Below, one piece after another: positions 141-63,784 of a DNA stretch of 64,000 nucleotides. The stretch lies in the IMG/VR virus record IMGVR_UViG_3300021400_000113, positions 40,932 through 104,931 of that record. One strand, given 5' to 3'. This DNA comes from a virus. Taxonomy: Duplodnaviria; Heunggongvirae; Uroviricota; Caudoviricetes. Both the position numbers and the translations under genes were made by a program. Position 1 is the first letter of the stretch, and each line of letters begins with the position of its first letter. A model generated the notes under the pieces. That model made no database searches. It was not told the origin of the DNA and worked only from the letters and a program-made list of their open reading frames with translations.

Positions 141-144
141 TTGT

Positions 145-173: not shown

Positions 174-260
174 TTTAATGTAAGTAGGAAAGAAAAAACC
201 AAGAACGAAATCTTATTTCAAGACTAATATGATACCAGAATTAGGAGGAAGAAAATAAAG

Positions 261-401
261 ATGAACGAACTTGACGATTTTCTTTGTAATCCTAGCTATG
301 AAGAACTTGAAGAAGAATTTGAAGCTTGGCTTCAACTTCAAAATCAGGTAGAAGTTAAATACTTGACTCAAAATAAAAATTGTGATATAATAAATATGTA
401 A
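261..401 (+). CDS. small acidic hypothetical protein (46 aa)
   Basis: AGGAGG at 244-249, ATG at 261, TAA at 399-401. The 3' end overlaps a promoter copy. Confidence 0.3.
   Translation: MNELDDFLCNPSYEELEEEFEAWLQLQNQVEVKYLTQNKNCDIINM
363..391 (+). promoter_or_regulatory. conserved phage promoter copy
   Basis: ttgact at 363-368 and TGtgaTATAAT at 386-391, followed by aaatatgtaaag. Precedes tRNA-Ala. Confidence 0.55.
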
Positions 402-3692: not shown

Positions 3693-4109
3693 TGGCCTTA
3701 GACGGGTCAAACGATGTAGGCTTTTTCCCAGCTCATTGGGTTAAGTGAGCATTAAGAGACTTGCCCACGCCTCTTAATAATGCGTACCAGGGAAGCACGT
3801 GGCTACAACGGTTAATAGTAGCAATATGGCGAGGTAGACCAATTTGGCAGAGTCAAGAGACTTTAGTAAAATTGAGCACTAAATAGGAAACTATTTATGT
3901 GAATCGCGTCAAATTCGGTGAAACTCCTTACAGGACAATACCGAGCGAAGCCTTTTAGGAACGTGTAGAGACTTGACGGCGCGCACCTAAACAGAAATGT
4001 ATGGTGAAGATAAAGTCCAGACTACAACGCTATTGCGGCCATAGTAATATGGAGTAGTAAGAAAATCTCTGTAGTGTGGGTTCGAATCCCATCCTCGCTA
4101 CCATTTATG

Positions 4110-4185
4110 TCCTCGTAACAGAATTGGCATATGTATTCGGCTCAAACCCGAAGTTCTGTGGGTCCGACTCCCACCGAGGATACCA
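4110..4185 (+). tRNA. class-I tRNA with CAA anticodon (Leu codon UUG; short variable loop)
   Basis: Acceptor gtcctcg/cgaggat with a G-U pair. Anticodon stem ttcgg/ccgaa, loop ctcaaac. T-arm gtggg-tccgact-cccac. CCA is encoded. Confidence 0.45.
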
Positions 4186-4186
4186 T

Positions 4187-4264
4187 GTCCAGTTGGCGCA
4201 ATTTGGCAGACGCGCATGGTTTAGGCCCATGTTTTTGAAGGTTCAAATCCTTTACTGGACACCA
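4187..4264 (+). tRNA. class-I tRNA with TAG anticodon (reads CUA; short variable loop)
   Basis: Perfect acceptor gtccagt/actggac. Anticodon stem catgg/ccatg, loop tttaggc. T-arm gaagg-ttcaaat-ccttt. CCA is encoded. Confidence 0.5.
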
Positions 4265-4420
4265 TTCAAATATTTAGTGGCGGAATATGTAGACGCAGAA
4301 AATACGAACAAGTCAGTCCAACATTCTAGTCATGAATAGAACCACGGTCTGCCGGACATAGGAAATACTTGCAGCTTAGTAATAGGCGAACCTGTGTGGT
4401 GAAAATCCACACCTAAATAT

Positions 4421-4446
4421 TTGACTTTCTTCAAAATTATATATAG
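4421..4446 (+). promoter_or_regulatory. variant promoter copy
   Basis: ttgactttcttcaaaattatatata. Weaker -10. Precedes the small ORF at 4458-4631. Confidence 0.3.
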
Positions 4447-4906: not shown

Positions 4907-5092
4907 ATGGCAATTTTAATTAAAGGCGTATCTAAATATAATAAAGATTGTTATAATTGTCCTTTTAATGATTCAAATTGCTGGTGTAATATCACTAAAA
5001 GTGAAATAGATCGTGATGATTATACCACAGAAGCTCCATGTCCAATTATTGAAATACCAGATTCAATACTTGACTTTTTCCAAAATTCATGA
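4907..5092 (+). CDS. small Cys-rich hypothetical protein
   Basis: ORF with multiple Cys residues (CYNCPF...CWC). The 3' end runs into a promoter copy. Confidence 0.45.
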   Translation: MAILIKGVSKYNKDCYNCPFNDSNCWCNITKSEIDRDDYTTEAPCPIIEIPDSILDFFQNS

Positions 5093-5098
5093 TATAAT
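5070..5098 (+). promoter_or_regulatory. conserved phage promoter copy
   Basis: ttgact at 5070-5075 and tgatataat at 5090-5098, followed by aaatatgtaagaaagg. Drives GC-rich non-coding island 5116-5700. Confidence 0.55.
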
Positions 5099-5732
5099 AA
5101 ATATGTAAGAAAGGAAAACGAAATGTAAAAGACATTTTGTTTAGCAATTATGAACCAAGTGAAGATGTGCTAACCACACAGCTTGGGATACTTGAATAAC
5201 AGCCATACACTACGGCCCGGGATACTAGGCAAGTGCGGCCGCGAAACTAGTAATAGTTAGCGATAGTGGAGAAACTCCAAATGTTAAGAGTATGCGCCAA
5301 GTAATTTGCTTGAAAATGCACGATTCCTTACGGCGACATAATAGGAAGCCAGGTTAAGAGCCAGGCCAAATCCAGATAAGGTATTGGGGTGGTAGCCAAT
5401 ACAAACTCTGGAAAAACCACAAGTCGCTATGTCGATGAAAGCCAGAAATGGCATATAAGTAAGGTTTGCGGTTGGAGTAGCCCAATTTGACAGTAATTCT
5501 AATAATATTTGATACAGATATTGAAGATGCTGAATGGTTTGGGTGAAACTTAGAGGTAAGCAATCCTCTCTATTCTCGGCGCTTGGCGTGGGAATCGGAT
5601 GGTATAAGGTCGCTACTTATACCACAGCCCGGTTTTCAATAGTAGCATAATATTCAAGAAGAATTATGAGGTACGGCGAAGGTCGCAGTAATTGTTAAAC
5701 AAAGTGTCTTTTATATTGAAAAAGGATATAAA

Positions 5733-6637: not shown

Positions 6638-6727
6638 AGGGGAGTGGTGTAACGGCAACACGCAGGTCTCTAAAACCTGGGCCTTCTGAGGGCGTCATTC
6701 TCGGTTCAAATCCGAGCTCCCCCGCCA
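6638..6727 (+). tRNA. amber suppressor tRNA (anticodon CTA, reads UAG), with a long variable region
   Basis: Perfect anticodon stem caggt/acctg with 7-nt loop ctctaaa, giving U33-CUA-A37. D-stem gtgt/acac. T-arm ctcgg-ttcaaat-ccgag. 3' end ctccccc-g-cca. Variable region is about 20 nt. Confidence 0.6.
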
Positions 6728-11741: not shown

Positions 11742-11742
11742 T

Positions 11743-11816
11743 GGGCGAGTAACCGAATTGGCATAGGTACCAGACTAAGAATCTGGGTTTTGAGGGTTCA
11801 ACTCCCTCTTTGCCCA
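11743..11816 (+). tRNA. tRNA with AAG anticodon (reads CUU; short variable loop)
   Basis: Acceptor gggcgag/tttgccc with G-U pairs. Anticodon stem ccaga/tctgg, loop ctaagaa. T-arm gaggg-ttcaact-ccctc. Confidence 0.4.
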
Positions 11817-11821
11817 TTTAT

Positions 11822-11896
11822 AGGCGAGTAGTCTAACGGTTTATTGGACATGCGGCTTTGACCCGCAGTGAGGTGGTTCGACTCCACCCTCGCCTG
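11822..11896 (+). tRNA. tRNA-Gln (anticodon TTG)
   Basis: Perfect acceptor aggcgag/ctcgcct. Anticodon stem tgcgg/ccgca, loop ctttgac. T-arm ggtgg-ttcgact-ccacc. Confidence 0.6.
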
Positions 11897-11971
11897 CTAA
11901 CGACTCTTACAGCAATTATTATAACCGCCATTTAATTTATATACAAGGTTAAGTATAGAGAGTCTAGATAT

Positions 11972-15791: not shown

Positions 15792-15803
15792 TGAGGTGAT
15801 TTT

Positions 15804-16412
15804 ATGGCTAATGAGTATATAAATAAAGTTATATACGGTGGAACTACTTTAATTGACTTAACTTCTGATGATATTACAGTATCTGACGTGCTAACAGGTA
15901 AAAAATTTCACTTACCTTCTGGTGCTCCAGCCACTGGTACATGCGCCTATGATGCTGACACATCTGACGCTACAGCTGTGGCAGCGGAAATTTTATCAAC
16001 AAAAACTGCTTATAAAAATGGTAGTAAATTAACTGGTACTATGCCAAATCGTGGTTCAGTAACTGGAACTATTTCAACCGTAAGTGGAGAATATACAATT
16101 CCACAAGGCTATCATGACGGATCAGGTAAGGTTAGTATCGCTTCTTCAGAGTAGGCTAAACTTATTGCAACTAATATTCGTGAAGGTGTAACTGTATTAG
16201 GGGTAACTGGTACTATGAATGGTAGTGAAAATGTTAAATCCACTGCCGCCTCAGTCACTCCTTATACGACCGCTCAAACAATTACTCCAACTGATTTAGG
16301 AGATTTTAACTCCATTACTCAAATTAATGTCGCAGCAATTGCGTACACAGAGACTGATAACGCAGCAGGCGGTAAAACTGTTACCATTGGTACAGTAAAT
16401 CCTAATAATTAA
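15804..16412 (+). CDS. tail fibre / receptor-binding-like protein, one in-frame TAG (16152-16154)
   Basis: ORFs 15804-16154 and 16215-16412 share a frame and are separated only by TAG. The N-terminal motif is paralogous to the next gene. Ser/Thr/Gly/Asn-rich. Confidence 0.5.
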
Positions 16413-16751: not shown

Positions 16752-19184
16752 ATGTCACAGGTAATTAATATTACTGATAGTAAAACTATTATTCCTTCTG
16801 GTTATGATAGTAATAACTCATCATATTCTAGTATTAATAGCAGTTATCCAGTAACCAACGGTTATACTGATGCCGATTCTACCTCTTATGCTTATATAAC
16901 TTGTAATACTGGCTCTCATGCTACTACGTATATTTCTTATACTTTTGATACTTCAGAAATTCCAGAAAACGCGGCAATAGATTCTATTACTTGTAAAGCT
17001 AAAGTACGCGTAAGTTCTACTTCTTATATTTCTACCGGAGTCACATAGCTGTACACCGGAAGTATAGCGAAAGGCAGTGCGACAACTACAAGAAGTACTA
17101 CAGCAACTACATATGATTTAACTACTGGAACTTGGACCCGTACAGAACTTAATGACGTTCAAGTACGTTTTACAGGCACGCGTGGTACAAGTAATACCAC
17201 CCGTGCCGCTTATTTATACTTTTATGGGGCTACTCTGACTATAAATTATTCTATTAATGGAACATAGTATAGTATTGTAGCAACCAGTAATGTTGAAAAT
17301 TATGAAATCTCTCCAAATCATCAAAATAAAATGGAAGGAGAGGAAGCAACGGTTACTATAACCGGAAATAATTTAGAAGATATTATCGTAACAGATAATG
17401 ATATAGATATAACAGAAAATTTAATATAGCATACAATTGAAAATACTGGAAGTGTATCCGCAATCCCAGGAGAAAATTTTGAAACAGGATTTAGTTCTTC
17501 TAATGCAAATTTTTATATGTCTTCAAGTTCAACCGGAACAACATGGTTAGAATATGCAATTGGGCACTCTGCTGAAAATCCATATACTTCTTCTAGCTCC
17601 CATAATACTTATGTTAAAGATAATGACAATAATACTGCAACTGGCTGGATTAGCTTCCCATTCGATTTTAGTGAAATTCCTTTTAATGCCGTAATAGATT
17701 TGGTTACAGTTAAAGTATATGGCGCACGTGAGAATTCAACCACTGATTCTACTCACGTAGCAAAATTTGGAGTCTATTGTAATGGAGTATTAAAAGGGGC
17801 AGAATAGCAATTTACTAGTACGACAAGTGGTATTGTTACTCTAACCTCCCCCGGAACCTGGACGCGCGAAGAATTACAATCAGCAGAACTTCGTTTTACA
17901 GTTGCGTATTATGGAGGACATTTAGATGGCGCTACTTGGACTGTAAATTACAGCGTTCCTAATACAGGAAATAATTATTATTGGACTTATGATTTAACTA
18001 ATATCAATGCAGACCATGTTATTTTAATAGATTAGCGTGGTGCTTTTATTCCTCCCGAAGAAAATCCAGAATATGAATATTATCCAATAACGATTTCTAG
18101 TATTAATGCTACTACAACCCCACATAATGGCTCTACCCGTATAATAGAAGGAAGCAATCAAACTATTACTATATCTCCTTCTGACCCACAATTAACACTT
18201 GCTTTAGATAATGGAGTAGACATTACAAGTCAATTGTAGGGAGGCACCCCTGAAAATACTTATACAATAACTACACAAGTCTCAGGAGCAAGTTATGGCT
18301 TTAATCTAAATGAATCAACTGGATATTATGTTTCAACTAATAGAGGAGTTTCAAATTCAGCAGCAGTTGCTAGACTTAATATGAATTTTGAAAGTAATTG
18401 TTTAGTAACAATACAATATATCAACTATGCTGAATCTGGATATGACTATGGACTATTTGGAAAATTGGACACGGTAGTATCAACAAGCGGTCTAACCGCT
18501 TCCAGTGGTAGTTCCTCCCCATCTGATAGTGATAACTATCAGTTAGCAATGGCATCTAATAATAGTGGCACACAAACAATAACTTATGAAGTACCCTATG
18601 GAGAACATTTTATTGATATTAAATATGGTAAAGATGCTGCGACCGATTCTAATAATGATACTTTATAGTGGAAAGTATTAAGTATAGAAGCCACCAGTGT
18701 CGGTGGAGATTATACATATACATTAACAAATATACAAGAAAAACATAGTTTAATTTTCATATTTGGTAATGTAAATTATTATTTTATAAATTCTTCCGGA
18801 ACAGAATGTAAATTATACCCGGATGGATAGATGGTTAAACTGGAAGGAGATAAATATAATTTAAGAATAATTCCAAATGATGTGAAAGCAACCGTAACCA
18901 TTGTAGATAATAATGTAAATGTTACAAATTTATTATCTATAGAAGAAGGAATAGATAAAAATAACAATCCAATTATTAATTATATATATACTTTAAATAA
19001 TATTATACAAACACATAATTTAGTTATTACATGCATTACTCATCATTAGATTTTATATACTAAAATTAATGGAAATTGGATTAATTTTAGTAAAGCTTAT
19101 GTTAAGATTAATGGCTCTTGGGCAGAGCAAACAGAACTAAGGTAGGTATTCGATAGCCGATTAAATTATGTAAAAGGAAATTAA
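16752..19184 (+). CDS. large tail fibre / adhesin-like protein (~811 codons) with ~10 in-frame TAG codons
   Basis: ORFs 16752-17048, 17517-17807, 18381-18668 and 18831-19049 all share frame 0. Only TAG codons interrupt them. First TAA is at 19182-19184. Composition is Thr/Ser/Asn/Gly-rich. Confidence 0.55.
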
Positions 19185-19216: not shown

Positions 19217-19281
19217 ATATATGTAAAAAAGAAAACCTACGGTCGTGACAACGACTAAGATGAAAAGGAGAGAAAAGGAAT

Positions 19282-20790
19282 ATGAATACTTTACTAAATG
19301 CGATGAAAAATGCTACTAATTATACTCACACCGAAAATGGAGCTATTACTCATGTTACTTCTAATTCCGCTCTACTAGACATGTTTGGTATGGGCGGTTC
19401 TATGCGCAATCGCTCTGATAATGATGTAATTTTTATGTTTAAAAAGGCATATGATGAAAATCCTGAATATGCCCTAAAGTGCTTATTTTATCTTCGTGAC
19501 GTGCGCGGTGGTCAGGGAGAACGTCGTTTTTTCCGCACTGTAATTAATTAGCTTGCTAATGAAAACAAGGAAGCGGTTATTCGCAATCTTGAGGCTATTC
19601 CTGAAATGGGACGTTGGGATGATTTATATTCTCTAATTGGTACTTCTTGTGAAAAGGAAGCATTAAACTTTATGCTTCATCAAATCACCCTTGACGCCGC
19701 AAGTAAGACTCCCTCTCTACTTGCTAAGTGGCTGAAATCTGAAAATACTTCTTCTGCGGAAAGTCGTCGTTTAGCCACTAAGACTCGTGAATATTTTGGA
19801 CTAACTCCTCGTGAATATCGTAAAATGCTTTCTAGTCTACGTACCAAAATCAATGTTCTTGAAAAGCTAATGTCTCAAAATCGTTGGGATGAAATCGAAT
19901 TTGATAAGATTCCTTCTAAGGCTGGACTTATCTATAAGAATGTTTTTGCTACTAAAGATGTAACCAAAGCTCGCTATGCGGCTTTTATGGCAAATAAAGA
20001 GACCAAGGTAAATGCTAGCGTACTAAATCCCGTAGATATCGCCAAACAAATTTTTTCCTCTAACTATGCCTCTAAGGTAGACCGTCTTGCTTGGGATAAA
20101 TATTGGGCAAATTTAAAAGACTATTACAATGGTCGTGAAGAACGCGGCATTGCCGTAGTAGATGTCAGTGGTAGTATGTATGGTACACCTCTATACGCCG
20201 CAGTATCTATGGGTGCTTATATCGCAGAACGTGGTAAGGGGCCTTTCCAGAATCACTTTATCACTTTCTCTGATAAACCTGAACTTGTTGAGTTCAATGG
20301 TATCGACCTTTATGATAAGTTCCGTCGCGCGGAAACTGCGAACTGGCAAGGTAGTACTAATGTTGAAGCAGTGTTTGACTTGCTACTTGATACCGCTAAG
20401 AAAAATCATGTGACTCAGGAAGAAATGCCTGAAACACTTTATATCCTTTCTGATATGGAATTTAATAGTTGTATGACTGATAGCACAGTTACTTACGATT
20501 ATTGGGGTCGTCCTCGCCGTAAGATTCTTGAAAATTCCGCAGAAGTAAATACTCTAATCGAAAAGAAAGCTAAGGAATGGAAGGCCGCGGGATATAAAGT
20601 ACCTAATGTGGTATTCTGGAATCTTGATGCGCGGCAAGATAATATTCCTGCAATTGGGGAAGGATTCTTTTACGTATCTGGTAATTCTATGAACGTAATT
20701 GAAAGTATTCTTTCTCGTACTCCTCCTAAAACCGCGACAGAATTAATGATGGACGTTTTAAACCGTCCTAGATATAGCAATATTCATTAA
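19282..20790 (+). CDS. vWA-domain protein (DUF2828/TROVE-like), one in-frame TAG (19549-19551)
   Basis: ORFs 19282-19551 and 19606-20790 share a frame across TAG. Has a MIDAS-like VVDVSGSM motif. Confidence 0.5.
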
Positions 20791-33947: not shown

Positions 33948-36821
33948 ATGGCAATAAAAAGTAAACCTCATAAATCCCCAAATTTAAATTGGCATAATAT
34001 GGGCAATTTAATTTTTTATAATGGACTAGAACCTTTTAATTTTTATTTTGATCTATTGTTAGAGGACTATGAAAAGCGTCCTCCTGAATATAATAGCTTT
34101 GCTAACGCTATTGGAGAAGCCGCGAAAAGTAAATTTAATTCAACTATAAACTCATTAAAAAATAATAAAGACGACGAAGGAATGACAAAATTAGAATCAA
34201 TACCCGCTTATTTAGAAAAAGCTATTTAGAAAGAATCAAATAATGAATTAGCTTTTTTTAAACAAAAATATGAATGGTTTAAATCAAATTTTTCTGAAGA
34301 AGAATTAAATAATTTACCAGAATTAAAATTTTTATTCGATTTTTTTTCCAATCCAACCACTCAAAGTGGAACTATTGATTATCCTCGCTTTTTAGCCGCA
34401 ATAAATATATTAATACAAGGATATGATAATGCAAAAGAAATAGTAAAATATGAGCGAAAGCGTCTAGAAGATTTAGAAAAACGATTCGCAGAAGCGAGAA
34501 AGGCCGCGGGAAGACGTGCAGTCGGATTAGCGAAAAAAAAATATGGATATGACGATATTGAAAAATAGGAATAGTGGCGAGAAACCGCAAAAATGAAAAA
34601 TCGTCGAAAAGTAGAAATTCATTATTTAAAAAATAAAAATTTCAATGATGAAAAAAAAATAAAAGGCTTAGGGTTAAAAACACGACTAGAAGGATTAGCG
34701 AAAACTGCCGATGTTGAAGTCGCAGATTGGATTACTAAAACATTATAGAATATGTTAGAATAGCCAGCAATACGTAATAAAATAGAAACATTAATTATTA
34801 AAAATAAAAACTTAGTATTTACAAATCCATAGCAATTAGCGCAAAAAGTCAAAAGCTCTTTAGTACAAAATATAACTAGTTATGGCGTTAAAAATATAGG
34901 AAAAATATTATCAAATCAAATTACTACAAAAAATCTCGATGAAATTATTTCAGAAGTTGAAAAAGATTTTACATATGATTATGAAATAGAAGGATTTTAC
35001 GAAAATTTTGGATAGTATGGTATTGAATTGGATTTTTTTAGAAATCCTAATAACTTAAATAAAGATGGCACTAAATCCGCGGAAAGACTATATGAAGCAT
35101 TAAAGCGCCTACAACATTTGCTTTCTTTATCACGACAAAAAAATAGTAGAATAAAACTTACCGACGAACAAAAATTTGTTGCTTCTGTTTTTTTTAAAGA
35201 TGAAGGAATTATTAATATAATGAGCATGATTTCTACTATTGAAAAATAGATGAAAGAAGTAGAGAAGGCAATTGAAGAAGTAAAAAAAACAGGACAGGCG
35301 CGAGATAAAACCTTAAGACTTACATATAAAGAATATATTCCCAATCAGCTCAGAGGTGAAAAAAATGATGGTAAAATTAAACTTCATATTGACGCAAATG
35401 GGAATATAGATTTAACCTCTCTTAATAGAATATATGGTAAATATACTAAAGAATTAGGATTTGGCTCTGACCGCATAAGAGCAAATACTTTATAGGGATT
35501 AGTATCAGGATTAAAATCTCGTCTAAGTTAGAAAATGCGAAATCAATTAGAAGATTTAATTTCTGGAAATACAAAAATTAAACGCAATAAAAAATTTTCT
35601 ACTTAGTCACAAATTAATCAAGCATTATAGGAAGGACTTGAAGGAATAACCGTATTTATAAGCGCCCCAGATCTCTCAGAAATTGCGCAAGGACTTCAGT
35701 TTCATATGGATGGAGATAACGTTTCTTTAATATGGACAGGACCACATAAAACAAAAAATGACTTCGTTACTATTACTATTAATACCCCAATAGCAGAAAT
35801 AAAAACAGAAGTTTCTTCTATATTAAATACTGATATTGAAAATCTTGGAGAAGATATAGAACAATTAATTTAGAATAGCAGAAAAGAAACTGCGAAACTT
35901 TTAGGAGAAGGACTAGCACACTATTCAACTAGCTTATCAGATAAAAAACAATATAATAAACAAAATGAAATTATGAAAGAATATGAAAATTCATAGAAAG
36001 AATACTTTGAACTATCTGAAAAAAATAATGAATTATTAGAAAATATGCCAAATCTTAAAGAATTATTAGAACGTGTAGAACGCACAAATAAAGGGCAATC
36101 CCCAGAACAAATTTCCGCGAAGAAAAAACAACTTCTTACAATGTTAACAGATTTCTTTTACGAATCTTCTACAATGAAAACCTTTAATCATTATGTTAAT
36201 GATGTTGGATTTGTAGGAGGAGGAATAGGAGGAGACGTCATAGCCCAAATGAATAAAATTGAAGAAATGTTTTTAAATGCAGGAATTTAGCTTGGAACTG
36301 ATAAAGATTGGTTAATAGGAGCTATTATTAACTGTTCTTCTCATAGTGTTATAGGAACTGAATATTAGAGTACTATTGAGCAATATTTAGGAGCTATAGC
36401 GGTTTTTGCAATGTTTGATGAAGGAGCCGTCGAATAGAGTGTAATAAATAATACCGCCAATATAAAAGGTAATACTAAATTTTTACATTTATACAGATTA
36501 AACGGAGGATATTATTTAGGTTCATATGTACTAACAAGAGTATTAGAATAGTTTAATGAATATATTTCTAAAATAGAAGAAGTTTCTACTAAATATTCTA
36601 ACATACACGGAGGAATTGCTATTCTAGGAGGTGGAATGACTCCACAAGATATACCAAATAGAGGACTTTATTCTTCAGAACCACAAAATCGTTCTCCTTG
36701 GCAAACTGTATCTGCTACTGCAAAAGGACGCGCATCAATATAGGTAGTATTTTTAGCAGGATTATTACAGACATTAAATTAGATTGAGGCCGCATTAAAT
36801 AATATTGAATATCCCGCCTAA
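33948..36821 (+). CDS. large (~958 codon) protein with ~21 in-frame TAGs; possible tape-measure or internal virion protein
   Basis: ORFs 33948-34229, 35028-35249, 35250-35495 and 36045-36290 all lie in frame 0. The frame is unbroken by TAA or TGA until TAA at 36819-36821. Gly-rich GFVGGGIGGDV segment and coiled-coil-like regions. Confidence 0.45.
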
Positions 36822-40722: not shown

Positions 40723-40737
40723 TTTTGGAGGTGTAAA

Positions 40738-41607
40738 ATGGATAAATCCCCATTTAATTATGTTGGTAATAAATTTAAATAGTTACCGCAACTATTTTAG
40801 ATTTTCCCTACAGATATAAATAATTTTGTAGATTTATTTACAGGAGGAGCAGACGTAGCTACTAATATGATTTCACACGCTAATATCATATATGCTAATG
40901 ATATAAATAAATTTACAATAGATATAATGAAAGTTTTTTAGGAGAAATCAATTAATGAAATATTAAGGTTTATAGATAATCGTATAGCAGAATTTCAATT
41001 AAGTAAAACCAATAAAGAAGGATATTTAAAATATAGAGAATTATATAATAATGGAACTTATTCAACTCCATTAGATTTATTTACTTTAACACGATTTAGC
41101 TTTAATAATAATTTACGTTTTAATAATAATTGTTAGATGAACCAAGCCTTTGGAGCTAATCGTTCTTCATTTAATCCAGCTATGAGAAAAAATACAATTA
41201 AATTTCATAAAAATATTCAATCAATTATTTTATCATGTCAAAGTTTTGAACTATTTTCAATAAATAATTTAAATTCAAAAGATTTTATATATGTAGATCC
41301 TCCTTATTTAATTTCAGACGCTTATTATAACGTCGGCGCGAAAAATGCTGAATTAAGATGGGAACAAAAAGATGATTTAAAATTATTTGATTTTTTAAAT
41401 AAAATCAATGACAAACAAATTCCTTTTGCTATGTCAAACTTTATTCATCATAAAGGAAAAACAAATGAAAAGCTTATAGAATGGATAAATGATATGAAAT
41501 TGAATACTTATGATATTAATTCTGATTATTCTCATTGCATAGCAAATATAAATAAAAATGATAATCCTACACTTGAAGTAGTAGTGACTAATTATAAAAA
41601 GGAGTAA
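40738..41607 (+). CDS. Dam-like N6-adenine DNA methyltransferase with four in-frame TAGs
   Basis: ATG at 40738 is in frame with ORF 41137-41607. N-terminus FNYVGNKFK-[TAG]-LPQLF...FVDLFTGGADVA is a Dam SAM-binding motif. DPPY catalytic motif at YVDPPYLISD. Confidence 0.65.
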
Positions 41608-51978: not shown

Positions 51979-51996
51979 TTTAATTTATGTTATAAT
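51968..51996 (+). promoter_or_regulatory. conserved phage promoter copy
   Basis: ttgact at 51968-51973 and tgttataat at 51988-51996. Confidence 0.55.
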
Positions 51997-52025
51997 TAAA
52001 TGTAAAGAAAAGGAGGATTGATATA

Positions 52026-53882
52026 GTGGCTTATGATATTAATTCAATTGAAAGTTTAAGTTTTAGAGAAGGCGTCCGCACTCGTATTCAAATGTATTTA
52101 GGTTCGGATGATATAGAAGGCACCTATCAAGCCTTAAAAGAAATTATAAACAATAGCACAGATGAAGCTCTTGCTGGATATGGTAAGAAAATTCAAATAG
52201 CATTAAATGAACAAACTAATACAATTACTGTACGTGATTATGGCCGCGGAGTTCCTTTTGGAAAACGCGAAGATGGTGAAAATGTTCTGGTATCTATCTT
52301 TACTAAGCCCCATACAGGTGGCAAATTTTCTCATGATGCTTATAAAAATGCATCAGGTCTTAATGGAATCGGCGGTAGTTGTGTATGCCTTTCTTCCAAA
52401 ACTTTTACAGTACAGAGTTTTCGTGATGGAAAAAGAGCCGCGGCAATATTTGAAAAAGGAATTCTAAAGGAATATATTGAAGAAAAATGTAATAATCCTA
52501 ATGGAACTAGAATAGATTTTAGTCCTGATCCTGAAGTATTTCGTAATGGTGAAATAGGATATGAATATTCACGTATTTGTCAGGATATTCAAGATATTTC
52601 ATATTTATATCCCGGTATTGAATTTATAGTTTCTAATGATAATGAACGGCATGTCTATTGCGCGAAAAATGGTATTGTAGATTTTATTACCGATAATTTA
52701 GAAAAGCCACTTCAAAAGCATATTATTACTAGTTATGCAAGTGATGGAACCGATAGTGTAGAAATTGCTTTTCAATGGGGTACTAAACATGAAACTGGTT
52801 ATGTTTTTGTAAATGGTCTGCGCTGCCCAGAGGGCGGCTCCCCGATTACCGGTGCTCGCGCGGCCCTAACGAAAACATTTAATTCATTAGCAAATGAAGC
52901 ATTTGATGGAGAAAAGATCCGACAAAACTTGTTCTATGTAATCAATTGTAAGGTAGAAAATCCTTCATTTGCTAATCAAACAAAAACAAAAATTAATAAT
53001 CCATCTCTGCGCACGTTAGCCTCTAATGCCTTTACTGCGGCTTTAAAGGATATGAATACAAAGTATAATACAGAGTTTAATACTATTGTAGAATTACTTC
53101 GTAAGGTTGAGAAAGCAGAAGCCGCCGCAGAGAAAGCTAGAAACGCAGTTCTAAATATGGAACGCAAAGAAACTGAACAGAAGAAAAAGAAAATTACTTC
53201 TTCTGATAAGTTTAAGGATTGTGAAAAGCATGGGCAGGATTCAATGTTAATTATTTGTGAAGGCAATAGTGCTCTTGGTGGTCTTATGCCCGCGCGTGAC
53301 GTAAATAAAGAGGCGTTGTACGCGGTACGTGGCAAAGTAAAAAATTTATTAAAGCATCCACTAGATGAATGTCTTGAAAATCAAGAAGTCTCTGACATTA
53401 TTCTTGCCCTTGGATGCGGTATTCAAAATCGCTATAATAGTAAAAAATTAAATTATGGTAAAGTCGCTATTGCAGTCGATGCTGATGTTGATGGCTATAA
53501 CATTATGTGTCTAATTGCTACAATGTTTTATGTACTTATGCCTGACTTTATTAAAGAAGGACGCTTATGTTGGCTGCGTGCTCCACTATATCGTTTAACA
53601 AAAGGTGATAAGCGTGTATTTGCTTATGATGACAATGAACTTGCCGAGCTTCGTAAGAAATATCCTAATTGGGAGCAAGGACGCCAAAAAGGTCTTGGTG
53701 AAATGACAGCAGAAGATATGGAAAACTCTATGCTTCATCCTACCGAACGCCATCTTGAAGTACTTACTATTAAAGATATGGAAGCCGCGGCTGAAAGTCT
53801 TAAAATGTTAATGGGTGAAGATGTTGAACCCCGTCGTGATTTCTTGTTTGAGAATGTTGATTTTAGTATTTTGAATAATTAA
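52026..53882 (+). CDS. type II DNA topoisomerase, ATPase/Toprim subunit (GyrB/T4 gp39-like)
   Basis: GHKL motif EIINNSTDEALAGYG. Toprim motif ICEGNSALGG. Confidence 0.75.
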   Translation: MAYDINSIESLSFREGVRTRIQMYLGSDDIEGTYQALKEIINNSTDEALAGYGKKIQIALNEQTNTITVRDYGRGVPFGKREDGENVLVSIFTKPHTGGKFSHDAYKNASGLNGIGGSCVCLSSKTFTVQSFRDGKRAAAIFEKGILKEYIEEKCNNPNGTRIDFSPDPEVFRNGEIGYEYSRICQDIQDISYLYPGIEFIVSNDNERHVYCAKNGIVDFITDNLEKPLQKHIITSYASDGTDSVEIAFQWGTKHETGYVFVNGLRCPEGGSPITGARAALTKTFNSLANEAFDGEKIRQNLFYVINCKVENPSFANQTKTKINNPSLRTLASNAFTAALKDMNTKYNTEFNTIVELLRKVEKAEAAAEKARNAVLNMERKETEQKKKKITSSDKFKDCEKHGQDSMLIICEGNSALGGLMPARDVNKEALYAVRGKVKNLLKHPLDECLENQEVSDIILALGCGIQNRYNSKKLNYGKVAIAVDADVDGYNIMCLIATMFYVLMPDFIKEGRLCWLRAPLYRLTKGDKRVFAYDDNELAELRKKYPNWEQGRQKGLGEMTAEDMENSMLHPTERHLEVLTIKDMEAAAESLKMLMGEDVEPRRDFLFENVDFSILNN

Positions 53883-53897
53883 GGAGTTATAAGAATA

Positions 53898-54053
53898 ATG
53901 ATTAATGAAAACAATTTAACTATAAATGACATAGAAAATTTAATTGATTATTATTGTAGTGATTGCTGCCGCAGTTGTGATGAATGTTCTTTAAGAGATT
54001 TTAGTAATGAACTTTATTATACAATAGAATCCTATAATAAGATGAATAATTGA
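53898..54053 (+). CDS. small Cys-rich hypothetical protein (51 aa)
   Basis: RBS aaggag then ATG at 53898. Stop overlaps the next promoter. Confidence 0.3.
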   Translation: MINENNLTINDIENLIDYYCSDCCRSCDECSLRDFSNELYYTIESYNKMNN

Positions 54054-54078
54054 CTTCTCTTTAAAATCATGATATAAT
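54050..54078 (+). promoter_or_regulatory. conserved phage promoter copy
   Basis: ttgact at 54050-54055 and tgatataat at 54070-54078. Confidence 0.55.
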
Positions 54079-54109
54079 ATAATAAATAAGAAAAGGAAGT
54101 GAAACCAAT

Positions 54110-56485
54110 TTGATTTACGAAACTGATTTTCAAAAACAAATTGAAAATGCTTTCTTGACCTATGGAGCATCCGTGGCGCAAGAACGTGCCATTCCCGATG
54201 TTCGGGATATGCTCAAAATCGGCTTACGTCAAGGATTGTATGCTCAATTTACAAATAAGCTAACTCATAAAGATAAGATGCAAAAGGCACAAAAATCTGT
54301 CGCCGCAGCAATGGCTCAGTCATATGTTCACGGTGACGTAGCGATGTATGATACCTTTATTCGCGCTGCTCGTCCTTGGTCTTATCGTTATCCAGTAGAA
54401 GATGTTCAAGGTAGTTTTGGTAATCCATCTTCTCCCGATAGTCACGCGGCTGCACGTTATGTAGAAATGCGTGCAGGAGAAATTGCAGATTTCTTCTTTG
54501 CTGGGTTAAAAAAGAACGCAGTAAATGAATGGTATTGGAACTATGATGATACAGAACAAATTCCTTCTGTATTACCTTCAATTGGATTTTGGAATATTGT
54601 AAATGGATGTTCCGGTATTGCTGTTGCCATGGCAACCTCTGTGCCGCAATTCAATTTAAAAGAAGTAAATGAAGCACTTATTAAAATTATTCAAAACCCA
54701 GCAGTAGATTTTAATGATATTTATTGTGCGCCGGATTTTGCTTGTGGTGGAACAATTATCAATGCACACGCCGTAAAAGAGAGTTTAAAGGTTGGCAAGG
54801 GAGAATCGGTTCGTCTACAAGCTAAGCTTACTTATTATCCTGATCAAAATATGATTCAGGCAACTGAGTTACCTTATGGCGTATTTACAAATACTGTAAT
54901 TGACCAACTTGCAGGACTTACAGAAGAAAATCCGGATTATGGGATTGAAAAAGTTGTAGATCATACAAAGAAAGTAGCAGATATTCGTATTTATTTATCT
55001 AAGGGAATTAACCCCAAGCGAATGATTGCGAAACTTTATAAAGATACTTCCTTAGAGAATTGGTTTTCCATTAATATGATTCTTCTCGATCGGGGTCGTT
55101 TTCCTCGGGTCTTTGGCTGGCGCGAAGCTTGTGATGCTTATATTGAACATATTCGTCAATGTGAAAGAAATATTATTCAATTTGATTTAGATAAGGCCCT
55201 CGCGCGAAAAAATGCAGTTGATGGATTGATTAAAGCATATTCAATTATTGATGAAGTTGTTGCTTTAATTCGCGGTTCTAATAGTCCATCAGAAGCTTCA
55301 ACAAAACTAATCAATACTTATGATTTTAATGAGGAGCAAGCTAAGGCTATTCTGGCAATGAAATTATCCAGTCTAACTAAATTGGATATTGTAAAGTTAA
55401 ATGAGGAATGCGAAGAACTTGCTAGAAAAATTGAGGAGTATCGTCACTTATTAAATGATTCTACGGCATTAGATAATGAACTTATTAAAATTTTACGCGA
55501 AGTAATTAATAAATATGGCGACGAGCGACGCACCAAAGTATTAAATCTTACTGATTCAGAAAATGAAACAGAAGCTCCAAAAGAAGAAGAAATTGGTATT
55601 ATGTTATTTGATAATAACATGCTTCGTTTGGTGAAGAAAGAAGATTTACAAGGCGGTAAGCGAGGCAAGAAGGGAGTAAATGTTAAGCCTCCGAAGAATG
55701 CGAACTTAATTAATACTCTTTATACTACAAATCTTGGAATCGCGGCCGCATTTACAAATCTCGGTCGTATGTATAACTTCTCTTTATCTGATTTAGATTA
55801 TGATAAAGATTATTCAGTATATGAAGTAATTACTTTACAAGATAATGAAAAAGTAATGTTATTAATTGATACGACTTCATTCAATGCTTATAAGAATCTT
55901 ATTACTGTAAGTAAAAATGGTTATATTAAAAAGACTGCCACGGTTGAATATGGTTCCCGCGCGAAGAAAGGAACCGCAGCGGTAAAATTAGAGCCAGAAG
56001 ATTCACTTGTTGGAGTTTATCTTTCTATGAGTGATGAAGATAAGATTTTTGTTACTAGCAGTAGTGGATATTATAATTTTTATAAATTAAGCGAAATCTC
56101 TTCTACTGGGCGCGTAACAAAGGGCGTAAAGGCAATTAAATTAAATGACAAAGAACAGATTTGTTCCGCTACTATCGTAAAAGATAATATAAACTATCGT
56201 GGCATTTTAACTATTACAAGTGGCGGCCGCGGGAAAATTACATCAGTTGAAGATTTTAATGAAACCTCTCGTGCAGTTCGCGGTAATCAAGTAATGATAT
56301 TAAAGGATGAAAAACTTGCTGTGGTATATGCCGTACCAGAAGAGCAAGAAAAAATCTTCATTTCCGCTAATAATAAAGCGGTATTAATTGAAGTAAATAA
56401 TATTCCATTACAGAATAGAGCGACTGCTGGAGTTCGTATTATTGATGCGCGTAATGGAGAAACCAATAAAATTGAAATCATGTGA
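54110..56485 (+). CDS. type II DNA topoisomerase, DNA-cleavage subunit (GyrA/T4 gp52-like)
   Basis: Active-site region HAAARYVEMR with the catalytic Tyr. TTG start; GyrA-like N-terminus ...ERAIPDVRDMLKIGLRQ. Confidence 0.75.
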   Translation: MIYETDFQKQIENAFLTYGASVAQERAIPDVRDMLKIGLRQGLYAQFTNKLTHKDKMQKAQKSVAAAMAQSYVHGDVAMYDTFIRAARPWSYRYPVEDVQGSFGNPSSPDSHAAARYVEMRAGEIADFFFAGLKKNAVNEWYWNYDDTEQIPSVLPSIGFWNIVNGCSGIAVAMATSVPQFNLKEVNEALIKIIQNPAVDFNDIYCAPDFACGGTIINAHAVKESLKVGKGESVRLQAKLTYYPDQNMIQATELPYGVFTNTVIDQLAGLTEENPDYGIEKVVDHTKKVADIRIYLSKGINPKRMIAKLYKDTSLENWFSINMILLDRGRFPRVFGWREACDAYIEHIRQCERNIIQFDLDKALARKNAVDGLIKAYSIIDEVVALIRGSNSPSEASTKLINTYDFNEEQAKAILAMKLSSLTKLDIVKLNEECEELARKIEEYRHLLNDSTALDNELIKILREVINKYGDERRTKVLNLTDSENETEAPKEEEIGIMLFDNNMLRLVKKEDLQGGKRGKKGVNVKPPKNANLINTLYTTNLGIAAAFTNLGRMYNFSLSDLDYDKDYSVYEVITLQDNEKVMLLIDTTSFNAYKNLITVSKNGYIKKTATVEYGSRAKKGTAAVKLEPEDSLVGVYLSMSDEDKIFVTSSSGYYNFYKLSEISSTGRVTKGVKAIKLNDKEQICSATIVKDNINYRGILTITSGGRGKITSVEDFNETSRAVRGNQVMILKDEKLAVVYAVPEEQEKIFISANNKAVLIEVNNIPLQNRATAGVRIIDARNGETNKIEIM

Positions 56486-59559: not shown

Positions 59560-60051
59560 ATGGGTGGATTACGAAAGGTTTTATTATGTCATGGTTGTCA
59601 TGATAAATTTTTAAGAGAAGAGCTGGTTTATTATACAACCGCTAGGGCACAAAAAGGATATTATTATTGTCAGAAATGCTTAAAGGAAAAGAAAGATAGA
59701 GAATTATTTTTAGAAAAAGTATGCGAAATTTTTGGTATAAAGTCTCCTGGCCAGCGCATATGGAAAGAGCGGGAACGAATTATAAATAAATATGGATTTA
59801 CTGATAAAGTAATTGTTGACTGTTTAGATTATCTTTATAACGAAGTAAAAGTGAAAAAATTAGTTGAAACAATTGTTTTAGTTAATCCTGTTAATGTACA
59901 AAAAATGCGTCAATTTCAACATGACCAGACGGCACAAGCCAATCAGATTGTAAACGCATTTAAGACAGAAGTACGCGAGTATAATATCAAGCCACGCGAA
60001 AATACAGAAGAGAAAAAAGAAGAATGGAATCCAGATGACTGGTTAGATTAA
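59560..60051 (+). CDS. zinc-finger hypothetical protein
   Basis: CHGCHD...CQKC motifs. RBS aaggag. Confidence 0.45.
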   Translation: MGGLRKVLLCHGCHDKFLREELVYYTTARAQKGYYYCQKCLKEKKDRELFLEKVCEIFGIKSPGQRIWKERERIINKYGFTDKVIVDCLDYLYNEVKVKKLVETIVLVNPVNVQKMRQFQHDQTAQANQIVNAFKTEVREYNIKPRENTEEKKEEWNPDDWLD

Positions 60052-60071
60052 GGTAAGAGAGGGGATTAATA

Positions 60072-61331
60072 TTGACATTATCAGATAAAGCTGCTTATCG
60101 TAGCGTTATCGGCAGTCTTATGCATAATCCACTTTTTTTTATAGAATATCCAGATATGGTGCCGACTGATTTTGATCAGGAAATAGCCCGTATTTGTTTT
60201 TTAATTATTAAAAAATTATATAATGAAGGCGCTGTAGTTATTACGCCAATAGAAGTAGATCAAGAAGTAGAAAGACATGAACGAACAGCAATAATATATA
60301 AAAGAGAACATGGTCTGGATTATATAAAAGATGCTTATGAGATTGCTGAACCGGGAAATTTCCCGTTATTTTATTCACGAGTAAAAAAGTGCGCATTATT
60401 ACGTCGCTTAAAAAAAGATAAATATGATATTAGTGAATTTTATATAGATGAAAAAGAAGCGGAGAATCCTTTACAGGAAGTAAAAGCACAAGAGCGATTC
60501 GAAGGTGCAACAATAGAAGAAATTTTAAATTCTGTTGAAGGAAAATACAATATTATAAGAAATGAGTTCTTAGCGGGTGGAAAAACAAAAGGAGATCCCG
60601 CAGAAGGTATATTTACATTAATTGAAGATTTAAAACAATCTCCAAGTATTGGCCCCGCATTAGAAGGAGATATTTTTAGTATGGCGTGTCGCGGAGCAAG
60701 AGCTGGATGTTTTTATTTAAAATCCGCCTCAACCAGTGCCGGTAAGACAAGAACTGCGGTATTTGATGCCTGTAAATTAGCATATCCAACAAGATGGTCT
60801 CATGAACTTGGAACTTTTGCCCAAGATGCATTTAAAACAACGGGGGAATTTGTTGAGCCACGAAAAGTTTTATTCATCGTTACAGAAATGGATAAAGTAG
60901 AATTACAAACAATTATGTTAGCGTATTTATCAGGAGTAGATGAAGATCATATTCTTAGAGGAGATTATGATATGGGAGAAGAAAGTAGAGTTAAATACGC
61001 GGCAAGAATTATTGAAAAATATAAGGGAAATTTTATTGTTGAAGAAATTAGTGATCCGAACTTAACAAATGTTGAAGCAACAATAAAAAAATATGCGACT
61101 ATTGATAAAGTAAAATATGTATTTTTTGATTATATACATTCAACCGCAAGTATGATTGGACAATTTGCTAAAAATAATATTCGTGAAGATAGTATTTTGA
61201 TGATGATGGCTAATCAATTAAAGCAATTAGCAAAAGATTATAATATTTTTATTTTTTCCGCAACACAGGTAAATGCTAATGCTATGATGGATGATGCAGA
61301 ATTTAAAAATGAAACCTGTATAAGGGGTTCC
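60072..61331 (+). CDS. DnaB-like replicative helicase, exon 1 (interrupted by intron)
   Basis: TTG start. DnaB N-terminal motif YRSVIGSLMHNP. Walker A SAGKT. ATQVNAN (DnaB SQLNR-like). Ends ...ETCIRGS immediately before TGA. Confidence 0.55.
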
Positions 61332-62319
61332 TGATAGTTGTGCCCCAAAAAACCCTAACCGCTTACCGGCGGGGTCGCAATAGCGGCTAACGAGGAAGTC
61401 CTAAAAATTTTTAGGATAATCTCGTGTCATGTAAGAAAATATCATAAATTAATTGTCGGAAAAATACTTATCTTATGACAGTAAGATAAGGAGGGATGCT
61501 TTATGGATAAAGTATCAGGAATATATGTAATAACAAATTTAATTAATAATAAACAATATGTTGGTTTATCAAAAGACTGCCATAAACGTTGGGCTGATCA
61601 TTATAATAAAAGTTATACTTCTAATAGAAAAGATGATTTAGAAAAGGCATTATACAAGGCAATGAAAAAATATGGCAGAGATAATTTTTCTTTTTAGATA
61701 ATCGAAGAATGTTCAGAAGATAAATTAGCAGAAAGAGAAATTTATTGGATTGAATAGCTTAATAGCTATGAAAAAGGATATAATGAAACTCGCGGAGGAG
61801 ATATATCAGGTCCAAATAATATTCACCTCGGAGAAGAACATGGAATGGCTAAATTAACAGAAGAAGAAGTTATTCAATGTAGAAATTGGTATAAAGAAGG
61901 AAAACGTAGTAAGGAGATATGGGAAAAATATTTTCAAAATAAAATTCAATATAGCGGATTTTAGAGAATGTGGCATGGAAAGACATGGAAACATATAATG
62001 CCAGAAGTTTTTGAAAATAATCCTCATCCGCGGAAAAAAGTAACTCCTGAAATAATATAGCAAATAAAAGATATGTATAATATTCAAAATATGAGTTGTG
62101 CTGAAATATACCATTATTTTGATGAAACAATTAGTAGAACTAGTATAAACGATTACTGTCATAATCGTAGATGATATTTTCTTAAGCGATGTATCGACTA
62201 TTCCCTTAATCGGGAAGTACAATAACTATTGGTACGTTATTGGAAACGGGTTTTCTTATCTAATTAGATAAGTAAGAAATAGTCAGTGCCATTGGTAACA
62301 ATGGAATAAACGGCAAAAG
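61332..62319 (+). mobile_element. putative group I intron in the helicase gene, carrying a GIY-YIG homing-endonuclease ORF
   Basis: ~1-kb insertion between helicase segments. Joining exon 1 (...CIRGS) to 62320 (IADKADMGFVM...) restores the conserved DnaB region (RESGSIEQDADvvmf). The insertion ends in G at 62319 and exon 1 ends in U. Confidence 0.45.
61503..62174 (+). CDS. GIY-YIG homing endonuclease with four in-frame TAGs
   Basis: RBS aaggaggg. GIYVITNLINNKQYVGLS GIY-YIG motif. Further YWIE-[TAG]-LNSYEKGYNETRGG. Frame is open to TGA at 62172-62174. Confidence 0.55.
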
Positions 62320-62660
62320 CCATAGCAGATAAGGCAGATATGGGTTTCGTTATGACGCGAATAAGTGAAAAAACTTGGAATAGCGTTGTTGGAAAATTTC
62401 GTATGGCGGCGCTGGAAGGAATAATAGATAAAGAAATAATTGATAATCCAGATAAGCGTCCAACACATATACTTGATATATATAAAATGAGACGCGGTCG
62501 TTATAAAAATGTAAGAATTTGGATTAGCTTACATCTTGGAACTGGTTATAGAAAAGATCTTATTATGACAACCGCGGATAATCAACCTATTGATAGAATA
62601 GATAAATTTAATACAACAGTTCCAATTCAGATTTCTAACTGGGCGGAGGAAATTAAGTGA
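62320..62660 (+). CDS. DnaB-like replicative helicase, exon 2
   Basis: Frame of ORF 62340-62660 extended upstream to 62320. ...IADKADMGFVM... and ...KMRRGRYKNVRIWISLHLGTG... match the DnaB C-terminal motifs. Confidence 0.5.
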
Positions 62661-63784
62661 TTTACAGTTTAAATGAGCAAGATAATGAATTAGATTTATT
62701 AGAAGCCAGTAAAATGGATATAATAAATTCAATTACATTAAATGACGTAAAAACTTTTTTAGAAAGCCTAGGAGTAGATCAAATAAGTGTTAATGAAGAA
62801 AAACAATATTTAATCTGTCCAACAATATGCCATAATCCATTACATGAAGCAGAATCAATGAAATTGTATTGGTATCAAAATAATAAAATATTTAGATGTT
62901 ATACTGAATGTAATGAAGCAATGTCTATATTCACTTTGTATAAAAAATTTATCGCGCAGAATGAAGATAGAGATATAACAGATGAAGAAGCAGAAGATTA
63001 TGTAAAGCATTGCTTAAAACAAGTTATTAAAGTAAATCAGCAAAAGGTTTCTGGGATTACATTAGATAGAGAAAAATATAAATTTACAAAAAATATTCCA
63101 GTATTAGATGAATATTCACCTAATATTTTATCATATTTTACCCATTATTATCATCCATTATGGCTGCGAGATGGAATAACAAAAGAGTCTATGGATCATT
63201 TTCAGATTGGGTTTTCCATAGCGCAAAATAAAATTATAATTCCACATTTTGATATAAATGGTCGCTTAGTAGGTATTCGCGCGCGAACTATTGATCCGCA
63301 GGAAGCCGAAGAATTTGGTAAATATAGACCAGTACAAATAGGGAATACAATATATACACATCAACTTCAATTTAATTTATATGGTATTTATGAACATCAA
63401 ATTAGTATCCAGCATCGTCGTTCCGCTATTATCGTAGAAGGAGAAAAATCAGTTTTATTAGATGACGGATATTATGGAGAATTAAGTAATACAGTGGCTT
63501 GTTGTGGTTCAACATTTAACAAATATCATATAAGTCTTTTAACTAATGTTTTAGGCGCAAATGAAATTATTGTAGCACTTGATAAGGAATATGATGATTA
63601 TAGAAGCGACAAAGCTAAAAAATATAAAGAAAAGATTGAAGGTATGTGCCGTAAATACTTAAATCAAGCTAATTTTTCATATATATGGGATAAAGAAAAC
63701 TTATTAAGAGAGAAAGATTCTCCATTTGATAGAGGAAAAGAAGTATTTGAATATTTATATAAACATAGAATAAAAGTTAAATAA
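62657..63784 (+). CDS. DnaG-like DNA primase (zinc-binding plus Toprim)
   Basis: GTG start with RBS ggagg. Zinc-ribbon CPTICHNPLHEAESMKLYWYQNNKIFRCYTEC. Toprim IIVEGEKSVLLDD and ALDKEYDD. Confidence 0.6.
   Translation: MIYSLNEQDNELDLLEASKMDIINSITLNDVKTFLESLGVDQISVNEEKQYLICPTICHNPLHEAESMKLYWYQNNKIFRCYTECNEAMSIFTLYKKFIAQNEDRDITDEEAEDYVKHCLKQVIKVNQQKVSGITLDREKYKFTKNIPVLDEYSPNILSYFTHYYHPLWLRDGITKESMDHFQIGFSIAQNKIIIPHFDINGRLVGIRARTIDPQEAEEFGKYRPVQIGNTIYTHQLQFNLYGIYEHQISIQHRRSAIIVEGEKSVLLDDGYYGELSNTVACCGSTFNKYHISLLTNVLGANEIIVALDKEYDDYRSDKAKKYKEKIEGMCRKYLNQANFSYIWDKENLLREKDSPFDRGKEVFEYLYKHRIKVK

Follow-up and report, generated by a model that had tools for sequence, protein, structure and literature searches.

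In phage T4, a late promoter and sequestration of the ribosome-binding site delay the expression of I-TevI, the GIY-YIG endonuclease of the td group I intron. A second reference is provided by the orf142 introns of Staphylococcus phage Twort, which belong to subgroup IA2 and whose ribozyme has a crystal structure (PDB 1Y0Q). A different kind of delay has been proposed in phages with a modified genetic code. In the TGA-recoded 'Agate' gut phages of Borges et al. (bioRxiv 10.1101/2021.08.26.457843; published 2022), a group I intron endonuclease lies in an early gene; in the passages of that report concerning it, this endonuclease is one of three preferentially recoded gene families, and in-frame stops are proposed to block its production until late infection. 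Beyond Borges et al., no other treatment of recoded intron endonucleases was found in the literature. Here we describe a locus of a similar kind in a 64,000-nucleotide (nt) stretch of a tailed phage (Caudoviricetes; positions 40,932 to 104,931 of the IMG/VR record IMGVR_UViG_3300021400_000113), referred to below as the window. A gene encoding a DnaB-like replicative helicase is interrupted by a predicted group I intron, which in turn contains a GIY-YIG homing endonuclease gene with four in-frame TAG codons. We consider it very probable that this is a mobile intron whose endonuclease, placed in the loop of the P6a helix, is completed only under TAG suppression. The coordinates of all features are given in Table 1.

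Interrupted helicase gene

In the list of open reading frames (ORFs), the first part of the helicase is an ORF of 420 amino acids (aa; 60072-61334) with the C-terminus ...NETCIRGS followed by TGA, and the helicase frame reopens at 62310 (TAKAIADKADMGFVM...) and runs to the stop at 62658-62660. The initial annotation had described this arrangement as one helicase gene split by an insert, and both the ends of the frames and the interpretation are sustained here. Joining U61328 to G62313 restores the frame and yields a 534-aa DnaB-like helicase (...NETCIRG/AKAIADKAD..., the slash marking the junction), with a Pfam DnaB_C match (E 4.2e-14). The predicted ligated-exon RNA reads ...AGGGGU/GCAAAAGCC....

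Searching with the joined protein yielded 826 relatives, and the best 120 of these were used to align the junction. All but one are uninterrupted proteins of about 535 aa with 63-72% identity, the remaining one being the exon-1 product of the same phage. The N-terminus of the helicase is fully covered by homologues of this length, and all 119 uninterrupted homologues cross the junction without gaps, with the consensus FKNETCIRG[AS]K[AS][IV]ADK[AC]D. The segment netcirgakaiadkad aligns with nsdlresgsieqdad (LRESGSIEQDAD) of solved DnaB structures, which places the junction in the conserved RESGSIEQDAD motif, as had been claimed from the sequence. Intron-less alleles, whose search had been suggested together with the alignment of the spliced protein, were thus found as homologous proteins and, at the DNA level, in the locus L132, which reads ...TGT ATT CGC GGG/GCG AAA AGT... 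at the insertion site. The spliced protein as a single query against viral contigs gave no relatives. An intein was considered and ruled out, since there are stops in the helicase frame within the insert.

In public gene calls this helicase appears in two pieces, a fragment of 404/420 aa and an orphan of 106 aa. The same sequence is present in a sheep rumen metagenome (NCBI GCA_001684375.1; ENA ERZ28612966 scaffold_749, 72 kb), and a 167-kb record is listed as well. The gene belongs to a replication module with the order topoisomerase II subunits, Sak4-like annealing protein, helicase, primase, RecJ and DNA polymerase III alpha subunit.

Table 1. Positions of the intron, its structural elements, the helicase exons, the endonuclease gene and TAG-recoded genes in the window. 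Paired strands are separated by a slash.
Feature	Position	Strand	Remarks
Helicase exon 1	60072..61328	+	419 codons; TTG start; ends ...AGG GGT; no TAG codons
Group I intron (predicted)	61329..62312	+	984 nt; based on homologue junction, P1/P10, intron-less L132 and ORF-less L008 copy
P1	61324..61346	+	Exon GGGGU 61324-28 / guide GCCCC 61342-46; wobble U61328·G61342 at the 5' splice site
P10	61338-41 / 62313-16	+	UUGU, directly 5' of the guide, can pair with exon-2 GCAA
5' half of core	61342..61428	+	R2 match; holds P3 5' strand, hairpins A and B, P4, P5
P3	61349-55 / 62248-54	+	Long-range pairing
Hairpin A	61359-63 / 61368-72	+	A2 covariation
Hairpin B	61376-78 / 61383-85	+	A2 covariation
P4	61390-94 / 61421-25	+	5' half of core
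P5	61398-61405 / 61410-61417	+	5' half of core
P6	61428-30 / 62189-91	+	CAU / AUG; read from sequence
P6a	61432-45 / 62171-84	+	UAAGAAAAUAUCAU; 14 perfect pairs; endonuclease ORF in loop
P6 and P6a 5' strands	61428..61445	+	3' strands 62171..62191
GIY-YIG homing endonuclease gene	61503..62174	+	223 codons and TGA stop; in P6a loop
3' half of core	62188..62314	+	R1 match; holds P7, P7.1, P7.2, P3 3' strand, P8, P9, terminal G62312
P7	62196-62201 / 62279-62284	+	3' half of core
P7.1	62202-05 / 62212-15	+	3' half of core
P7.2	62220-26 / 62236-42	+	3' half of core
P8	62255-61 / 62266-72	+	3' half of core
P9	62289-94 / 62299-62304	+	3' half of core
Helicase exon 2	62313..62660	+	115 codons and stop; opens GCA AAA GCC ATA GCA GAT AAG GCA GAT
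tRNA, anticodon CUA	6638..6727	+	ARAGORN; Rfam tRNA 52 bits; presumed decoder of the four endonuclease TAGs
Recoded ORF	16752-19184		10 TAG; very large unannotated protein
Recoded ORF	33948-36821		20 TAG; very large unannotated protein
Recoded ORF, DNA methyltransferase	40735-41607		4 TAG

Predicted splice sites

The splice sites are predicted at U61328/U61329 and G62312/G62313, with an ambiguity of about 1 nt, so that the terminal base of the intron is G62312. The boundaries suggested in the initial annotation (U61332 and G62319) had to be abandoned: they would yield IRGSSIADKAD, one residue short and with the conserved Lys lost. Sites one base downstream (after U61329 and G62313, giving IRGS/KAIADKAD) fit the protein consensus and were also tried, but U61329 has no wobble partner in the guide and the resulting exon-2 CAAA has no P10 pairing. 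In the 165-kb contig L008, which has a shorter copy of this intron at the same helicase site, the counterpart of the P10 pairing is GCGA with UUGU. P1 is formed with other exon sequences in other members of the family: GAGGAU/GUCCUC in L067, CUGGU/GCCAG in L123 and GUGU/GCAC in L092.

Read in the frame of exon 1, the first codons of the intron are UCC UGA UAG. Since the UGA-UAG pair lies 4-9 nt inside the intron, ribosomes arriving from exon 1 stop there, and the same stop arrangement is present in the L008 copy.

The Arg-Gly codons preceding the insertion are AGG GGT, corresponding to the GGGGU strand of P1, in both intron-bearing alleles (the window and L008), and CGC GGG in the intron-less L132. 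This codon choice is consistent with exon bases being constrained by the intron, or co-converted with it.

Catalytic core

The initial annotation held that the insert was compatible with group I splicing, and a covarying catalytic core together with correct splice-site pairings bears this out. We built two covariance models from related introns, one for the 3' half of the core (R1, 35 sequences) and the other for the 5' half (R2, 28 sequences), leaving the window and its L008 sister intron out of both. R1 has a single match in the window (111.2 bits, E 2.3e-24), covering the full length of the model with every modelled pair standard, and R2 also has a single match (66 bits, E 3.6e-17). The two matches flank the endonuclease ORF, and that of R1 ends at the predicted 3' splice site.

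The alignments behind these models show clear covariation. In the 3' half (A1), 88.4% of the cells are paired, against 66.6% in shuffled alignments and 35-46% with slid partners; for the 5' half (A2) the values are 94.9%, 72.2% and 30-43%, respectively, and none of the 500 shuffles reached the observed value in either case. Two-sided changes occur in P7.1, P7.2, P9, hairpins A and B, and 2 of the 5 P4 pairs. The P7 strands GACUAU/AUAGUC are invariant and thus uninformative for covariation, while agreeing with the Rfam consensus AGACUA...AUAGUC.

For the long-range pairing P3, analysed in 60 non-redundant sequences, 76% is paired against at most 51% with shifted partners. When the best complement to the 3' strand is sought within each sequence, it falls at one alignment position far more often than at any other, and many of these complements are perfect 7-mers of differing sequence. 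Two other partners were examined for P3 and discarded. The strand adjoining P4 belongs to a hairpin that is paired in 99% of the cells, and a conserved GGU that follows hairpin A does not keep its pairing to the P3 strand in L034 and L123.

Applied to the three introns of Twort orf142, R1 scores 47.4, 25.9 and 13.6 bits, and R2 scores 31.8 bits on intron 1. The R1 matches group the core of the window with phage introns bearing P7.1 and P7.2 (IA-type).

Intron family

In a blastn search against phage genomes, positions 62190-62290 of the window were about 75% identical to a non-coding gap in the topoisomerase/gyrase B of the Lactococcus 949-group. DNA patterns derived from the shared core motif led to 8 viral contigs carrying this motif at first, and to more than 120 in the end. 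In 118 of the 130 motif matches, the motif is preceded by GACUA and followed by UAGUC with the spacing expected for P7. Two members of the family pass the gathering score of 50 of the Rfam group I intron model RF00028 (L008 at 4224-4440, 57.8 bits; L049 at 404-705, 58.8 bits). Most ORF-less relatives fall below the RF00028 threshold, and Rfam gave no match on the Lactococcus relatives.

The most informative relative is the 237-nt ORF-less copy of the same intron in L008, located at the identical helicase site between ...NETSIRG and AKSIADKCD.... This sister intron has compensatory changes in P3 and a short hairpin (GAAGAAAAAUUUUCUUU) in the place where the window holds the ORF. The intron has a sporadic distribution at this site, being present in this phage and L008 and not in 119 of the 120 best helicase homologues, a pattern that would indirectly favour homing.

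Other insertions were observed in and around the same gene. L008 has two additional group I introns a few kb downstream (4224-4440 and 4960-5192, minus strand). The helicase homologue of L067 contains an intron of the family at a different site, after ...NLRED (56-335, minus strand), and the 898-aa homologue P0017 contains an intein that includes a LAGLIDADG endonuclease. Selfish elements are drawn to the helicase gene and its surroundings. Outside this gene, a 288-nt ORF-less intron of the family, not annotated as such, lies between two coding sequences of topoisomerase/gyrase B in L001 (2814-3101; Lactococcus phage LW81, KY554777, 58339-58626) and L002 (P1048).

Endonuclease gene

The endonuclease ORF starts MDKVSGIYVITNLINNKQYVGLS and has exactly four in-frame TAG codons (61695-97, 61755-57, 61962-64 and 62058-60; residues 65, 85, 154 and 186) with no TAA or TGA before its end. 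Both the ORF with four readthroughs and its assignment to the GIY-YIG homing endonucleases had been proposed earlier and proved right. The Pfam GIY-YIG domain (PF01541) is found with E 2.2e-12 and 47.5 bits (cut-off 22.6). The first 95 residues align with the catalytic domain of I-TevI (1MK0/1LN0; E about 9e-12), and the catalytic Tyr, Tyr, Arg, His, Glu and Asn of I-TevI are kept (aligned in GIY, YVG, KRW, H, ERE and GYN). The C-terminal DNA-binding part has no Pfam match. The closest of the 386 homologues mostly have exactly 223 aa, and full-length relatives are found at 70-85% identity.

A Shine-Dalgarno sequence AAGGAGG is present at 61488-94. As the ORF is in the P6a loop and its TGA stop sits in the P6a 3' strand, its translation would open P6a and not the catalytic core. 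In the start region (61467-61516), two local hairpins bracket the ribosome-binding site, with the AUG atop the second stem (-18.5 kcal/mol, z -4.9). These modelled hairpins could provide translational control as in I-TevI.

Reassignment of TAG

In a scan of the window counting only TAA and TGA as stops, we found ORFs with 10, 20, 4, 3 and 1 TAG codons and no internal TAA or TGA. Together with the encoded tRNA-CUA, these long TAG-bearing ORFs uphold the earlier suggestion that TAG is read as sense in this phage. The ratio TAG/(TAG+CAA+CAG) is 0.40 in the endonuclease, ranges over 0.36-0.41 in the remaining genes with clear recoding, and is 0.00 in the helicase exons, the primase and both topoisomerase II subunits (51996-56485 and 60072-63784). 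Two ORFs with one TAG each have intermediate values (0.25 in 15795-16412 and 0.11 in 19264-20790). TAG use is therefore largely bimodal between the genes of the window.

TAG most likely specifies Gln. The tRNA-CUA, of 90 nt, has an acceptor end like that of the tRNA-Gln of the phage (A1·C72, G2-C71, G3-C70, G73; compare 11822-11897). At position 154 of the endonuclease, one of the TAG positions, Q is found in 81 of 120 homologues and a CAA codon in 19 of about 60 viral loci.

Recoding of the endonuclease is not restricted to this phage. A tblastn search of the endonuclease against loci fetched through the intron core alone gave 85 alignments with endonuclease homologues, and 39 of them contain in-frame stops, comprising 79 TAG, 13 TGA and no TAA, with a single kind per locus (among others L003, L012, L023, L052, L061, L065, L109, L111, L115 and L129). 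Endonucleases with only TAG or only TGA on other contigs indicate that recoded intron endonucleases are common in recoded phages.

Proposed mechanism

We propose that the intron folds after transcription and would be excised by two transesterifications, with P1 presenting U61328 and G62312 marking the 3' site. Ligation of GGU to GCA would then produce the single 534-aa replicative helicase, whose TAG-free exons could be translated from the start of infection. Ribosomes entering from exon 1 would come off at the UGA-UAG that begins with the fourth intron base. The four TAGs of the endonuclease would be decoded as sense, most likely as Gln; because TAG is sense in a subset of genes and a tRNA-CUA is encoded, the nuclease would be completed only while suppression is active. 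If it behaves like its relatives, the endonuclease would cleave helicase alleles that lack the intron in co-infecting phages, and repair of the cut would copy the intron into them.

Evidence against this mechanism and alternative explanations

Several observations weigh against the mechanism proposed above. The Rfam check suggested in the initial annotation came out negative: RF00028 has no match in 61000-62700 even at E<=1. This is weak evidence, because RF00028 cannot bridge the 725-nt insert in P6a and also misses most ORF-less relatives. The order of the helices is also atypical, with the P3 5' strand located upstream of two covarying hairpins, which are then followed by P4. It differs from the canonical order P1-P2-P3-P4 in the peripheral arrangement and not in the core, and the order P1-P3-hairpin-hairpin-P4 is found in most members of the family (L001, L008, L049, L055, L067 and others); the usual order, with P3 adjoining P4, is seen in a minority (L020, L039, L052, L061 and L115) and in the Twort introns. 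This atypical order may be the reason why Rfam misses most members, and these introns may form a previously undescribed structural variant of the IA type, mostly missed by current Rfam models.

Other such points concern decoding and its timing. The tRNA-CUA has a long variable arm, unlike a typical tRNA-Gln, and Gln is clearly favoured at only one TAG position, the other three being variable among homologues. A scan of 59900-62800 for sigma-70 promoters and terminators gave fewer sites than shuffled sequences, with no evidence of an internal promoter and no late-type promoter or timing signal. In PHROGs, the two large recoded ORFs have no family that would mark them as late or structural genes, and one of the recoded genes is a DNA methyltransferase.

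Some of these points fit an alternative that we regard as a possible, though clearly less probable, explanation: the intron and the readthrough are real and the TAGs have no regulatory role, the endonuclease having taken on by drift the codon usage of its genome, in which TAG is an ordinary Gln codon for genes not needed before suppression. The TAG share of the endonuclease equals that of the other recoded genes and does not exceed it, the methyltransferase is recoded too, and the promoter and terminator scan gave no independent signal of timing. Nevertheless, the bimodal use of TAG (0 versus about 0.4) implies selection against TAG in one class of genes, and the endonuclease, although it lies within a gene that avoids TAG, falls into the other class. 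Moreover, Borges et al. (bioRxiv 10.1101/2021.08.26.457843) report a significant enrichment of recoded codons in a family of intron endonucleases.

Once fixed, homing endonuclease genes commonly decay, and the existence of an ORF-less copy in L008 would agree with a splicing intron whose endonuclease is a dead remnant, the TAGs being true stops and only a 64-aa N-terminal fragment being made. We find this improbable. TAA, TGA and frameshifts are absent over 223 codons (P about 2e-6 for a frame free of TAA and TGA, from the trinucleotide frequencies of the window; 0 of 20,000 shuffles of the ORF, a sequence with 34% G+C), and the catalytic residues are intact. The full-length relatives at 70-85% identity also have 223 aa, TAG is used as sense elsewhere in the phage, and the homologous endonucleases on other contigs carry TAG only or TGA only, never TAA. 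Finally, a permanently split helicase (420-aa and 106-aa subunits) with a free-standing endonuclease in between, like the nrdA of Aeromonas phage Aeh1 with mobE, would account for the ATG at 62340 that opens the 106-aa ORF and for the negative Rfam result, but it is very unlikely, given that the two halves are separated precisely by a covarying group I core, that P1, P10 and the terminal G restore the frame to the residue, that the ORF-less L008 copy at the same site is inexplicable by insertion of a free-standing gene, and that a fragment starting at M62340 loses AKAIADKAD of the conserved motif.

Other elements in the window

A second group I intron, of another type, was found at about 3866-4057 (region 3830-4099), matching RF00028 with 58.3 bits at 3854-4038. 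It splits the anticodon loop of a tRNA gene missed by ARAGORN, between positions 34 and 35; the spliced loop would read CUUAAAA, with the anticodon UAA. The classic tRNA-Leu(UAA) intron of cyanobacteria and plastids has the same insertion site. The three tRNAs of the phage that have Leu anticodons (4109-4264 and 11742-11817) are short, with 76-78 nt, and are devoid of the long arm expected of bacterial tRNA-Leu. A full-length ROOL RNA (RF03087, 323 bits) is located at 5131-5705, within a cluster of about 25 phage tRNA genes.

Implications

If the mechanism of a mobile intron with a suppression-dependent endonuclease is correct, the genetic code itself would silence a selfish nuclease that sits in an essential early gene, until the phage switches its decoding. 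A broader and only tentative suggestion is that this family of introns and endonucleases adopts in general the code of its host phage. The reassigned codon would then time nuclease production and also form a barrier between codes: a recoded endonuclease would be inert in a phage using the standard code, and these introns could spread only among phages sharing the same code. According to Birkholz et al. 2024 (PMC11620839), intron endonucleases can serve as weapons between co-infecting phages, and the timing of their expression may thus matter for phage competition.

Equally tentative is the suggestion that the family constitutes the structural variant mentioned above. Since Rfam misses most members, a model specific to this family would mend many phage gene models. 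The locus also offers an anatomy that can be tested, with exact predicted splice sites, four defined TAGs, a target allele that lacks the intron and a sister intron that lacks the ORF.

Comparison with known systems

The intron shares its family with those of the Lactococcus 949-group phages (LW81, AM1-AM12 and P1048), where the 5' half is homologous too, in addition to the 3' segment that led to them. However, the Lactococcus intron has neither an ORF nor a P9 hairpin, it interrupts topoisomerase/gyrase B, and these phages are annotated with the standard code.

The introns of Twort orf142 have the same P7-P7.1-P7.2-P3'-P8-P7'-P9 architecture and sequence motifs. They differ in having no ORF in this gene and a short P7.2 loop, and in the location of the P3 5' strand, which in Twort adjoins J3/4-P4, after P2, whereas in the window it precedes two hairpins.

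The td intron of T4 is alike in being a group I intron with P7.1 and P7.2 in a phage gene of DNA metabolism, with a GIY-YIG endonuclease in P6a and a stop just inside the intron, and the catalytic domain of I-TevI is homologous to that of the endonuclease in the window. In td, on the other hand, the host gene is thymidylate synthase instead of a helicase, and the order of the helices on the 5' side is different. The delay, if present here, would come from codon reassignment.

The Agate phages provide the nearest parallel in logic. In both cases an intron within an early gene of a recoded phage encodes an endonuclease with many reassigned stop codons. The codon concerned is TGA (Trp) in the Agate phages and TAG (probably Gln) in the window, the present phage was recovered from the rumen of sheep by metagenomics, and the passages of Borges et al. 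on this gene give no splice sites, dissection of the structure or identity of the host gene. A link between endonuclease expression and the suppressor tRNA, which we infer for this phage, is not new, the same logic having been described for a TGA-recoded intron endonuclease. What is new is a TAG-recoded and structurally resolved case, which provides a fully mapped example, for TAG, of an idea that had been put forward in brief for phages recoding TGA.

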